DNA from: a virus
Lineage: Duplodnaviria > Caudoviricetes
DNA length: 64,000 bases
Virus record (IMG/VR): IMGVR_UViG_2786546475_000015
Location: 101,978 to 165,977 of that record
Strand: one strand, 5' to 3'
Part shown: positions 59,244 to 62,945 of the stretch, piece by piece
Layout: every line of letters starts with the position of its first letter
Numbering within the stretch: the stretch's first letter is position 1
Made by a program: the position numbers and the translations under genes
Notes under the pieces: generated by a model
Told to the model about the DNA's origin: nothing
Seen by the model: the letters and a program-made list of their open reading frames with translations, nothing else
The model's database searches: none

Positions 59244-59305
59244 AATTAATTTGTATTTTCTTATCTCGTATGGTAAACTATTACTATATCAGATAAGGAG
59301 ATTAA

Positions 59306-59485
59306 ATGAAGAAGATATTATCAAGAATTGCTTTAGCGTACAGTGTTCCATTTTATACAATCGTTTACATTTATCACAACGGATTAGTTGATGGATTTAT
59401 GTATTCTGTATCTACATGGTTGGTATCGCTACTGCTAGTAAGTTTAATGGTAGGTGGTTCATGTTCTCGGAACAATACAAGTTAG
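59306..59485 (+). CDS. small membrane protein (59 aa, not in ORF track)
   Basis: TAAGGAG RBS; MKKILSRIALAYSVPFYTIVY...; TTGTAT-17-TAAACT promoter upstream. Confidence 0.7.
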   Translation: MKKILSRIALAYSVPFYTIVYIYHNGLVDGFMYSVSTWLVSLLLVSLMVGGSCSRNNTS

Positions 59486-60261
59486 ATACACTGTTATCCG
59501 AAGCTCATAAAATAGAATTTTCGGATGAACAATGGGAAATTATGTTGTATTCCGAATCCGAAAATGAATTGATTAATCAGATCAATGAAGCGGATGTTTA
59601 TAACATGGTTACTTACGGTGCAGATGTTATTAAAGGCGTATTTAAGCGCTTAAAAACGGAAATTAAAGATATAGCACAAGAATTTCAAATTTCAGTAAAT
59701 GAAATTAAAATGGCTTTATCGTTTCCAGAAATTAAAGAAATGCTGAAAGCATTTGGATATAGTATAAAGGCTTTTGCTAAAACACTTTCTAAAAGTGTTG
59801 GTTTAGTCGGTACTATGTGTCATGATTTATTCGACGAATTAGAAAAATATGGATTTGCTGATGATCTTGATAAAGGTTTATCTGTATTAGATAATTGGTT
59901 CGATAATCATCCTCTAGCAAAGAAAGTTAGTGGATTTATGGTAGCGACTACGTTACTGTATATTTGGCTTTCTATGACGTTTACAGGGCGTTTTAGTAGC
60001 GATATGAACCTAAAGAACATCATCATGGCTTTAAGTGGTAAATATTCTTTAAGAGAAATATTCGCTACACCAGAAGGTAAATTGATGTTGGTACTATTCG
60101 GAACAGGTTCTTTTGTAACTTTTCCTTGGTTAGGTGCAACATACGGAAATCTTATGCTAGCCGTTGTGTATACTGGATTTATGATGATGAATCAAACAGG
60201 TATGGCATATAAAATTAAGAAAAAAATTAAGAAAAATGCTAAAATAGATATAAATCCTTGA
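59461..60261 (+). CDS. hypothetical protein with C-terminal TM segments
   Basis: Start MFSEQ after AGGTGG; hydrophobic C-terminal third. Confidence 0.7.
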   Translation: MFSEQYKLDTLLSEAHKIEFSDEQWEIMLYSESENELINQINEADVYNMVTYGADVIKGVFKRLKTEIKDIAQEFQISVNEIKMALSFPEIKEMLKAFGYSIKAFAKTLSKSVGLVGTMCHDLFDELEKYGFADDLDKGLSVLDNWFDNHPLAKKVSGFMVATTLLYIWLSMTFTGRFSSDMNLKNIIMALSGKYSLREIFATPEGKLMLVLFGTGSFVTFPWLGATYGNLMLAVVYTGFMMMNQTGMAYKIKKKIKKNAKIDINP

Positions 60262-60269
60262 TTTTGGTA

Positions 60270-60277
60270 TATAAATA
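60270..60277 (+). promoter_or_regulatory. late promoter upstream of leader/tRNA block
   Basis: TATAAATA exact. Confidence 0.6.
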
Positions 60278-60340
60278 AGAATACACATTTTTAAATTTAA
60301 GTCTGTCGTTGCTATAAGAACGACTTTTAAGAGAGATTTT

Positions 60341-60457
60341 ATGAAATTATTAACACTATCATATGAAAAACATAATATTCTACCGCAGGTGGACTCTTTT
60401 TCATACGTGCGTGGTAATTTCTTTAAAAATCTTAGATCGGGTATTGTACATATGTAA
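60341..60457 (+). CDS. putative 38-aa leader peptide
   Basis: GAGAG RBS-like; MKLLTLSYEKHNILPQVDSFSYVRGNFFKNLRSGIVHM*; followed by a terminator with an alternative fold. Confidence 0.6.
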   Translation: MKLLTLSYEKHNILPQVDSFSYVRGNFFKNLRSGIVHM

Positions 60458-60486
60458 TTGATACATAGTACTATTAACTTTTGTTA

Positions 60487-60513
60487 AGCCCGACTTTTAT
60501 AGTCGGGTTTTTT
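60487..60513 (+). terminator. intrinsic terminator (candidate attenuator)
   Basis: AGCCCGACT-TTTAT-AGTCGGGTT-TTTT, 14 nt before tRNA-Phe. Confidence 0.85.
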
Positions 60514-60527
60514 ATTGTCTAAATTCA

Positions 60528-60603
60528 GGGTAGTTAGCTTATATGGTAAAAGCGCGTGGTTGAAGCCCATGAGATAGGAGATCGTTACTTCTACTACCCA
60601 CCA
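60528..60603 (+). tRNA. tRNA-Phe(GAA)
   Basis: CGTGG TT GAA GC CCATG; GGGTAGT/ACTACCC-A-CCA; atypical T-loop ATCGTTA. Confidence 0.85.
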
Positions 60604-60605
60604 AG

Positions 60606-60682
60606 GGGCGAATAGCTTAGTTGGTTAAAGCGCCGATTTTACATGTCGGAGATCGTTGATTCGAATTCAACTTCGCCCACCA
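60606..60682 (+). tRNA. tRNA-Val(UAC)
   Basis: CCGAT TT TAC AT GTCGG; GGGCGAA/TTCGCCC-A-CCA. Confidence 0.92.
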
Positions 60683-60749
60683 AATTTTGCTTGTGGATGA
60701 CCACTGATTCAAGTTACCACATTAGCATCGGCGTTAGCCGAAATATAAA

Positions 60750-60826
60750 CGGGGTATAATGTCAATTGGTAGACGGCTCGCTTTGGAAGTGAGAGGTTGT
60801 AGATTCGAGTTCTACTACCCCGACCA
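60750..60826 (+). tRNA. tRNA-Pro(UGG)
   Basis: CTCGC TT TGG AA GTGAG; CGGGGTA/TACCCCG-A-CCA. Confidence 0.92.
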
Positions 60827-60830
60827 ATTC

Positions 60831-60906
60831 GGTCATATAGTTCAATTGGTAGAACAGCGGATTCATGATCTGCATGTTGTAGGTTCAAGTCCTACTATGA
60901 CCACCA
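60831..60906 (+). tRNA. tRNA CAU (Met or Ile2)
   Basis: GCGGA TT CAT GA TCTGC; GGTCATA/TATGACC-A-CCA. Confidence 0.9.
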
Positions 60907-60966: not shown

Positions 60967-61155
60967 ATGAATTACAGAAAATGGATAGGTAAGAAAGTTA
61001 GAAAGTGTTCTAATAAACCTTTTAAATCTGGCGAAAAGATTAACACTGTAAAGGGCTTGTTCTTTAATAATAATTCTGGTAAAATGGGATTTTTATTTGA
61101 AGAAGATGATTCTGTTGTTGATTGTTTTATTTGTAGGTTGAATGATGTTGAATAA
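60967..61155 (+). CDS. hypothetical protein
   Basis: TAAGGAG RBS; TTGACA-17-AATAAT promoter upstream. Confidence 0.75.
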   Translation: MNYRKWIGKKVRKCSNKPFKSGEKINTVKGLFFNNNSGKMGFLFEEDDSVVDCFICRLNDVE

Positions 61156-61537
61156 TGATATACCTATAAGAAATCAATTTAAAAAAGTTATTCGGGAAAT
61201 CACTAATTCTACTGAATATATTAAATTGGTTTTACGTTTTGGTTACCATGTTGAAGATCGTATTAGAGAACGTCTTTGTACACCTAGAGAATATGTTAAA
61301 ATATTAAACTTCTTTAGGTATGCTGTTAGTAGAAACTATATGGAATTTCGTTTAGCTCAATCGCGTGGCTACGAAGAAATTATTATCGAATTGAATGATT
61401 ATTATAGATTCGTGATCATACCTAGTTACGGTAAAACGAATGATTATTCGATAAGAACATTTTATGTATGTAGGACTAAACCTACATATAATAAGAAAAA
61501 CACAAAATATTTTAAATTTTATGATAAAAGTGTTTAA
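61142..61537 (+). CDS. hypothetical protein
   Basis: FGYHVEDRIRERL motif. Confidence 0.65.
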   Translation: MMLNNDIPIRNQFKKVIREITNSTEYIKLVLRFGYHVEDRIRERLCTPREYVKILNFFRYAVSRNYMEFRLAQSRGYEEIIIELNDYYRFVIIPSYGKTNDYSIRTFYVCRTKPTYNKKNTKYFKFYDKSV

Positions 61538-62029: not shown

Positions 62030-62945
62030 TAAACTGAAAATATACGCTTTAGAGTATAACAGAATTTACCCACCTAAATGATCGTTTATGGTGTAAAGTA
62101 AAACACGTTCTTGTTTACGGGTAATGCGATATGGGCGCGATAAGCACTGGTAACGGTGTGAAAGGGTAAGACTCCAACATCTTATCTGCTATGAAAATAG
62201 TCATCCCATGAAAGCCGAGAGTTCTATAAGATATCAAGACCGTAGGAAACTTGGTATTCGGCTAGGACGGTAAGGTAGGAAATAAGTCGGTATGGGTAAC
62301 TCCGAATATTGGCTTCGCGCTCGCAAAGCGATTACTACACGCAAACTTACCTACTAGGTAGACTCAAAGGGTATGGTATTTGGTCAGAGTCTTAGCGGAT
62401 AAAGGCGATTTACCTGTTCAATTGGTTGTGTACGTTCGGCGGCGAAAGTCGCTATGCAAGCATGGTCGAGAAGAACCGTAGAAAAGTAACCTTAGCGGGT
62501 GAAACTACATTAGGATGTAATGTATTGGGTAGGTCAAAAGCTTATCTAGCGTTTTCGGGGCGCACATCCTTGTTGGTTATATATATATTTCGGTCACAAA
62601 AACCGAACTTGCATATTGGGCAATGTTTATACAAAAAACGTAAAGACGCTCCGAGGTTAAAAACGAAAGCGGTTTAATACCATAGCGAAAGCAATATGGT
62701 TTGTGGATAGCTCACAAAGTTTGAAACAATTTATCGGGATACTGCATGGTGAGTTTAGCGACTCTTTAGTGCTCGCAAGGCATACAGAATGTTGAAGGTA
62801 GAGTAGTTTTTAATCTAACCGTAAATGCTAACGGGATATAAAATAGCAACCGTGACAAGATACGTGGTAGCCACGTGGATAAGGTGAGAATAACATAATG
62901 CACTTAAAGACTTGTCGAATTTAGCTGTAATCTCAAGCTAATGTC
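62030..62945 (+). ncRNA. large (~900 nt) structured RNA, GOLLD-like
   Basis: Stretch without a credible CDS, GC-richer than flanks, in a tRNA cluster; many GNRA-capped hairpins and a terminal TTAGCT-GTAATCTCA-AGCTAA hairpin. Family assignment is from recall and context only. Confidence 0.7.

Follow-up and report, generated by a model that had tools for sequence, protein, structure and literature searches.

A candidate leader-peptide attenuator ahead of tRNA genes in a T4-like phage, and similar leaders in the tRNA arrays of other phages

Transcription attenuators of amino-acid operons and of pheST in E. coli and Salmonella (trpL, hisL, pheL, pheM, thrL and ilvL) combine a translated leader with a terminator and an antiterminator, and those of thr and ilv have multivalent leaders. 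An anti-antiterminator of the trp 1:2 type is not required in every attenuator. A different solution is found in the T-box riboswitches of Gram-positive bacteria, which respond to uncharged tRNA by regulating genes for aminoacyl-tRNA synthetases as well as amino-acid genes. Among phages, the tRNA region of T4 consists of tRNA genes interspersed with small ORFs and the homing endonuclease gene segB; there is, to our knowledge, no description of leader-peptide attenuation in this region.

The locus analyzed here, followed by a group of tRNA genes on a T4-like phage genome, is likely a three-strand variant of the trp/his design in which the output replenishes what is sensed. It resembles the trpL/hisL type in its short leader ORF, its intrinsic terminator and the use of the terminator 5' arm as one strand of an antiterminator. 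As in those systems, a ribosome at the stop codon is predicted to mask the antiterminator strand and an upstream stall to free it, and RNA polymerase could pause at a hairpin with a U-run that lies in the leader. Several differences are also apparent. The regulated genes here would be tRNA genes, whereas those of the classical systems encode enzymes or synthetases, and the output would thus directly replenish the sensed molecule. Furthermore, the unit is viral and sits behind a T4-type late promoter, its cognate codons are scattered rather than gathered in a run, and no 1:2 anti-antiterminator was found in it, so that its default when untranslated would be read-through. A preliminary description of this DNA had assigned it the geometry of the trp, his and pheST attenuators; a three-strand version of that geometry is indeed present, but with no anti-antiterminator found it is not the same.

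The likeness to T-boxes lies in terminator/antiterminator control that is tied to tRNA status. In contrast, T-boxes bind tRNA directly, have no ORF and carry the conserved T-box sequence. An Rfam search of 60262-60527 returned no family, the T-box covariance model included, and gave only chance-level matches to small RNAs (E at least 0.67), of which the best was MicC (27.9 bits, E = 0.67). The surroundings of the locus recall the T4 tRNA region, in that tRNA genes alternate with small ORFs and the array of one relative holds a homing endonuclease gene.

The role of phage tRNAs has long been debated, and has been variously seen in codon compensation, in the replacement of degraded host tRNAs and in escape from tRNA-cleaving defences (PMC10264068, PMC11555353, PMC11464382). 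The regulation of phage tRNA genes has hardly been treated. A full-text literature search found no publication on their attenuation, and in the phage-tRNA papers that were searched, attenuation, leaders and terminators are not mentioned.

The stretch of DNA under study, here called the window, is the final 64 kb of the 165,977-bp IMG/VR virus record IMGVR_UViG_2786546475_000015, from a phage whose source is marine metagenomes. It encodes homologues of the T4-type proteins gp6 and gp23. Since its gp23 is at most 59% identical to that of any GenBank phage, this is a deeply branching T4-like phage. Around the locus, small ORFs are interleaved with the tRNA genes, all of them on the + strand, within an array of 24 tRNAs in total that spans the end and the start of the record. 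The parts of the leader unit and the genes behind it are as follows, in window coordinates.

60270..60277, + strand: T4-type late promoter box TATAAATA(A), invariant in five sequences with diverged flanks
60305..60324, + strand: 5'-UTR hairpin H0, a 6-bp stem with a conserved 8-nt loop, (G/A)CTATAAG
60330..60336, + strand: weak SD-like sequence AGAGAGA, 4 nt 5' of the ATG, kept in the window, L002 and L008
60341..60457, + strand: leader ORF, 38 sense codons and a stop codon
60362..60405, + strand: hairpin H1 within the ORF, with its tip at 60379-60393 and a T-run on its 3' side, predicted for the window, L002 and L008
60437..60442, + strand: antiterminator 5' strand TCGGGT (codons 33-34), complementary to GCCCGA at 60488-60493
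60446..60471, + strand: hairpin P2 over the stop codon (60455-60457), predicted by RNAfold
60474..60487, + strand: hairpin P3, a 5-bp stem with a loop of 4
60486..60513, + strand: intrinsic terminator, a hairpin (60486-60510) of 10 pairs (5 G-C) with a loop of 5, then six T
60528, + strand: tRNA-Phe(GAA), the first gene 3' of the terminator
60606, + strand: tRNA-Val(UAC)
60750, + strand: tRNA-Pro(UGG)
60831, + strand: CAU tRNA, the last of the gated block Phe-Val-Pro-CAU (60528..60906)

The promoter, ORF, terminator and tRNA genes all lie where the preliminary description had placed them. Metagenomic relatives of the locus were found in Logan assemblies, through two 64%-identical homologues of the 281-residue protein encoded just upstream, on the syntenic contigs L002 and L008; two truncated contigs, L003 and L009, were used for comparing the promoter and H0. 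The GenBank phage collection holds no close relative, whether sought by DNA or by the upstream protein. A search of viral contigs with two neighbouring proteins found no related locus, and exact and gapped DNA patterns (the terminator, the terminator with tRNA-Phe, a conserved spacer, and the promoter with H1) matched nothing in viral and metagenome contigs. Four metatranscriptome runs contain pieces of this phage, in contigs that span only 59300-59537 and 60997-61250, outside the leader.

The promoter box is unchanged in the window, L002, L003, L008 and L009. Elsewhere in the phage, TATAAATA lies 14-44 nt 5' of late genes such as that of the gp23 homologue, and on sequence grounds it is a working late-promoter motif in this phage. 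Between the box and the ORF, H0 differs between the window and L003, L008 and L009 by three compensatory pairs that retain pairing, and 96% of its cells are paired, versus 33-55% when the partner is slid. This hairpin is missing from L002, where its site, on a reading of the sequences, looks like a deletion between ATAAGAA repeats. The SD-like sequence is weaker than the GAGGT or AGGAG sites that the phage usually has. The ORF behind it uses 25 distinct codons for 17 amino acids, among which Ala, Trp and Cys are missing. Within the ORF, the tip stem of H1 persists in L002; in L008 it does so by way of two changes that leave the pairs intact. H1 scored as terminator-like in the window and in L002, and may mark a position at which RNA polymerase pauses.

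At the end of the ORF, TCGGGT is a near-copy of the terminator 3' arm GTCGGGT, and the terminator 5' arm (60488-60493) doubles as the 3' strand of the antiterminator. The stop codon is 13 nt 3' of TCGGGT, which places this motif within the footprint of a terminating ribosome, and Phe27-Phe28 are located 15-18 nt 5' of the motif. The terminator is followed after 14 nt by tRNA-Phe. No separate promoter between 60513 and 60528, of the kind that the preliminary description had named as evidence against gating, is supported. A sigma-70-like sequence 3' of the switch (60474-60503, 9/12 matches, overlapping the terminator) was considered, and was rejected as unsupported because it is not in L002 or L008 and because 14 nt is too short for a promoter.

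Cut off at the terminator loop, with the 3' arm yet to be made, the nascent RNA is folded by RNAfold into a three-way junction of -18.2 kcal/mol that holds the 60446-60471 and 60474-60487 hairpins; this is exactly the TCGGGT-GCCCGA antiterminator with two enclosed hairpins that had been proposed. It and the terminator are mutually exclusive folds, again as proposed, and both the ORF and the pairing are conserved in L002 and L008. The window antiterminator is only 6 bp, closing a multiloop, and the full RNA favours the terminator (-23.7 versus -20.3 kcal/mol), leaving the antiterminator 3.4 kcal/mol less stable.

Chance pairing was assessed with shuffled sequences. A 5' arm that is paired in the nascent MFE structure occurs in 50-70% of shuffles, and because this criterion is uninformative the energy gain was used as the statistic. 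With 60 nt of upstream sequence, pairing of the 5' arm in the window gains -8.8 kcal/mol, versus -2.2 +/- 2.1 in shuffled sequences, a gain reached in 4 of 400; with 100 nt upstream the window gain is not significant, being reached in 104 of 400 shuffles. The gains in L002 and L008 are -11.5 and -9.2 kcal/mol, reached by 2 and 10 of 400 shuffles, respectively. Furthermore, genuine sequence provides a better null than shuffling: when sequestration of the 5' arm was compared across the 26 intrinsic terminators of the phage genome, this terminator was an outlier, at -10.2 versus -4.6 for the next best.

The effect of translation was modelled by masking 28 nt around a ribosome in the window, L002 and L008. 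A ribosome with its A site on the stop codon led to the terminator fold in all three sequences, and one halted as far along as is possible without covering TCGGGT led to the nascent antiterminator in all three. This limiting position corresponds to Phe28 for the window, Met22 for L002 and Val22 for L008, each of them preceded by a Phe codon. These folds agree with the earlier suggestion that translation to the stop codon terminates transcription and stalling antiterminates it. No conserved competitor of TCGGGT, corresponding to the trp 1:2 anti-antiterminator, was found in the folds of the three sequences, and untranslated RNA should therefore read through.

The two relatives retain the promoter box, the SD-like site, an in-frame ORF, TCGGGT, the stop-codon hairpin, the P3 hairpin and the terminator. 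Their leader ORFs are homologous to that of the window, with 34 codons in L002 and 33 in L008. The distance from ATG to TCGGGT is 96 nt in the window and 78 nt in both relatives, so that the motif is always in frame, and this frame is kept in the relatives although 18 nt are absent 5' of the motif. Seven residues (N12, L14, P15, V17, F27, S33 and G34) are invariant in the three leaders, and those outside the pairing include Pro, Val and Phe. The stop-codon hairpin is built from different sequence in L002 and L008, and the position of P3 holds a 5-bp hairpin with 5 of 5 pairs changed. The 3' arm of this P3 equivalent can alternatively lengthen the antiterminator, which reaches 11-12 bp in L008 and L002 versus 6 bp in the window. 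Indeed, in L002 the antiterminator is the MFE structure even for the complete RNA, and RNAalifold on the three nascent RNAs yields the antiterminator as the consensus fold. The sequence of the terminator stem is the same in all three. Covariation had been proposed as a check on the model. H0, H1, P2 and P3 do change with pairing kept, but for the antiterminator itself the covariation consists of a single G-to-A change; it is so small because there are only two independent lineages with the exact unit.

Behind the leader, L002 has tRNA-Phe and tRNA-Val at the same place as the window. In L008 the leader and terminator are kept, but the Phe, Val and Pro tRNAs have given way to an HNH/NUMOD4 homing endonuclease gene (L008 3688-4218), probably in a recent replacement, and the CAU tRNA is all that is left behind the leader. 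This contig is thereby a natural test case, in which gated tRNAs have been swapped for a homing endonuclease gene.

The codon content of the window leader had been offered as evidence that it senses the tRNAs it gates, and here the results are divided. The cognate codons are Pro15, Val17 and Val23, and Phe20, Phe27 and Phe28. P15, V17 and F27 are among the invariant residues, but enrichment of the leader for its own tRNA set is slight (z = 1.2), as is the Phe/Val/Pro/Met content of the whole leader (P = 0.15), and in L008 the leader is kept with its Phe, Val and Pro tRNAs gone. Codons 17-28 contain 5 Phe, Val, Pro or Met codons among 12 (P = 0.03, for a stretch picked post hoc). The match of Phe, Val and Pro codons in the window is thus suggestive at the sequence level, and the sensing codons here would be the Phe, Val and Pro (and Met) codons at 15-28. 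Other arguments from codon usage fared less well. The diversity of 25 codons for 17 amino acids is real, but 17 distinct amino acids are expected often enough (P = 0.25) that it carries no argument, and the same applies to the lack of Ala (P = 0.15) and of Trp (P = 0.60). Nor do the G/C-ending codons stand up as decoding sensors: the rare G-ending codons CCG, GTG and TCG fall on paired positions, and RNA structure rather than decoding may therefore explain them.

Much clearer evidence for such matching came from viral contigs searched with a pattern consisting of TCGGGT, a gap, the terminator stem and its T-run, which demanded neither a tRNA nor an ORF. The pattern was found in 15 other viral contigs (L012-L026), in every case within a phage tRNA array. 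At each locus a short ORF runs into the motif, and a tRNA gene lies no more than 100 nt downstream in 12 of the 15. The leaders reflect the genes that follow them. Ahead of Asp-Asp-Glu-Glu tRNAs the leaders are rich in Asp and Glu (motif DDAEE), the leader of a pair of tRNA-Phe genes is rich in Phe, and a leader with Ser, Asn, Trp, Arg and His precedes Ser-His-Trp-Met-Asn-Arg tRNAs; a mixed leader stands ahead of a 22-tRNA array in L021. Some leaders translate the motif as Ser-Gly and others as Val-Gly, arguing that the RNA rather than the peptide is conserved. As in the window, the stop codon always adjoins the antiterminator strand or lies past it.

As a test of prediction, other tRNA blocks on the same contigs were inspected for leaders without use of the pattern. 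A Gln/Pro/His-rich leader (motif QPVPQQHPQ) was found 5' of Pro-His-Gln tRNAs in L018 and L014, and an Ile/Thr/Arg-rich leader 5' of Thr-Arg-Arg-Ile tRNAs in L026. These leaders have other terminator stems, with a matching complementary segment at the end of the ORF: in L014 and L018 this is AATGGGG, facing CCCCATT in the terminator arm, and the antiterminator pairing in L026 is also significant. Their energy gains run from -9.6 to -15.8 kcal/mol and were reached by 0-1 of 300 shuffles. A permutation test with one representative for each of 11 leader classes compared leaders with their own downstream tRNA sets; the summed z was 28.8, a value reached in none of 200,000 permutations, and 8 of the 11 leaders rank their own set first. 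Because this tracking of tRNA sets by leader amino-acid content makes sense only if the leaders are translated, the leader ORF is presumably translated. A cultured phage with a leader of the Asp/Glu type was also sought, and tRNA-Asp alone was matched.

The terminator stem of this locus also occurs, letter for letter, in low-GC viral contigs from other lineages, and TATAAATA is also found upstream in L013, L015 and L021. The window copy itself belongs to a T4-like myovirus, is driven by TATAAATA and has a generalist leader with weak codon matching. It adds to the class a T4-like example with a late promoter, along with a common switch sequence by which members of the class can be pulled out of viral metagenomes.

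A conserved box TTCTTTGAC(G/A)TATTGGAA is present between the terminator T-run and the first tRNA in the low-GC contigs L012, L014, L018, L020, L023, L024 and L025; by reading it is not a complete promoter, and it may be a processing signal. Many otherwise differing leaders (L012-L026, and the window at 60341-60364) share the N-terminus M-K-N-L/V-x-N-I, which suggests either common descent of the module or selection for A-rich codons that favour initiation.

The simplest way to account for these observations is that the locus is probably a ribosome-mediated (leader-peptide) transcription attenuator that gates phage tRNA genes. The architecture and logic that the preliminary description had put forward are upheld by the retention of the parts in two relatives and by the way in which leaders of the wider class mirror their tRNAs; sequence analysis shows that the parts exist and are conserved, that the two folds exclude each other and that leaders correspond to tRNAs across the wider class. 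Transcripts from the late promoter at 60270, or from early promoters upstream, would carry the 38-codon leader, whose terminal TCGGGT could pair with the terminator 5' arm whenever it is free. During smooth translation to the stop codon, the ribosome would cover TCGGGT and open the stop-codon hairpin, allowing the terminator to form and ending transcription 14 nt short of tRNA-Phe. With no ribosome on the leader, a late one, or one that had stalled no further along than codon 28 (Phe-Phe), TCGGGT would pair first with the 5' arm, and the resulting antiterminator would let RNA polymerase enter the tRNA genes. Since the output consists of the tRNAs whose shortage slows the leader, the circuit would provide negative feedback on tRNA supply. 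The recurrence of the design, with leaders that spell the amino acids of the downstream tRNAs, argues that it most likely raises tRNA production when decoding is slow. It also seems a reasonable expectation, though a somewhat less secure one, that unrelated phage lineages, this T4-like marine myovirus among them, share a class of undescribed autoregulatory attenuators in which an ORF gauges codon decoding and slow decoding turns on the matching tRNAs, making tRNA supply demand-driven and potentially inducible upon depletion or cleavage of host tRNAs. The link to host tRNA-cleaving defences, which had been part of the original proposal, may exist on this model.

The unit could also be a real attenuator that senses translation in general, reading through whenever ribosomes are scarce or lagging, for example late in infection or when translation is stressed in any way, with no specificity for particular tRNAs. 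The window leader, which spans 17 amino acids with no clear cognate enrichment, is what such a sensor would have, as is the mixed leader ahead of the 22-tRNA array in L021. The persistence of the L008 leader without matching tRNAs points the same way, and so does the prediction that absence of translation, with no anti-antiterminator found, is alone enough for read-through. However, strong specificity for the tRNA set behind it is the rule for a leader of the wider class, the residues conserved in the window family are Pro, Val and Phe, and the last codons to free the antiterminator strand are those for Phe, Met and Val. A general sensor is therefore credible for this locus and yet unlikely.

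A less probable reading, indeed a doubtful one, is that of a small late gene with its own promoter and terminator, whose product is the 38-residue peptide and in which the pairing is incidental or stabilises the mRNA 3' end. Promoter, ORF and terminator do make up a complete mini transcription unit, the L008 unit precedes a protein gene, and the ORF is conserved, with about 7 synonymous and about 8 non-synonymous codon differences between L002 and L008 by hand count. However, the peptide family has just 2-3 members: PHROGs and Pfam gave no match to the leader peptide, and a profile search of 1.84 billion proteins yielded nothing beyond the L008 peptide and a single repeat protein that is unrelated. 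Moreover, the DNA similarity between the window and L002 is partly out of frame, the antiterminator is the outlier among the terminators of the genome and is longer in the relatives, and all 15 switch loci of the wider search are within tRNA arrays, with leaders that match.

Least probable, and by a reader of these sequences hardly to be expected, is a structured non-coding RNA with an untranslated ORF (a late small RNA, or an element for processing or stability of the tRNA precursor), since the compensatory conservation of H0, H1, P2 and P3, the weak SD-like site and the rare codons at paired positions, which would suit it, are set against an ORF that is open and in frame in three sequences despite indels, a stop codon that is always beside or beyond the antiterminator strand, and the lack of any Rfam family match.

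If the attenuator model is correct, phages set their tRNA output by measured decoding speed, and leader sequences are a readable record of the tRNAs that each phage treats as limiting. Classical attenuation would be extended to the shortest possible feedback loop, in which the sensed molecule is the product, and the leaders would be small, programmable components with which the speed of translation at chosen codons could be sensed.

Several other features of the region were observed. A full-length match to GOLLD RNA (RF02032) is located at window 62512-62939 (+), between tRNA-Glu and tRNA-Tyr within the tRNA array; it scores 186.8 bits against a gathering score of 150, with E = 6e-52. In the spacer between tRNA-Val and tRNA-Pro, a 36-nt block (window 60699-60734, +) is identical to L002 2576-2611, compared with only 64% identity in the neighbouring protein. 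The block has small hairpins inside and may represent the remnant of a tRNA or a stable RNA released by processing. Near-identical intrinsic terminators occur in about 10 copies on the + strand, at window 2952, 5955, 10584, 13129 and other sites genome-wide; the recurrent stem is AAAGCCCTTGC..GCAGGGGCTTT, followed by TTGCTATC or TTGTTATC, and resembles a dispersed terminator cassette. Finally, the 281-residue ORF 5' of the leader (window 59416-60261) lacks an SD for its first ATG, a 59-codon ORF (window 59306-59485) overlaps it in a different frame, and in the relatives a 55-residue gene overlaps the start of the homologue of the 281-residue ORF.
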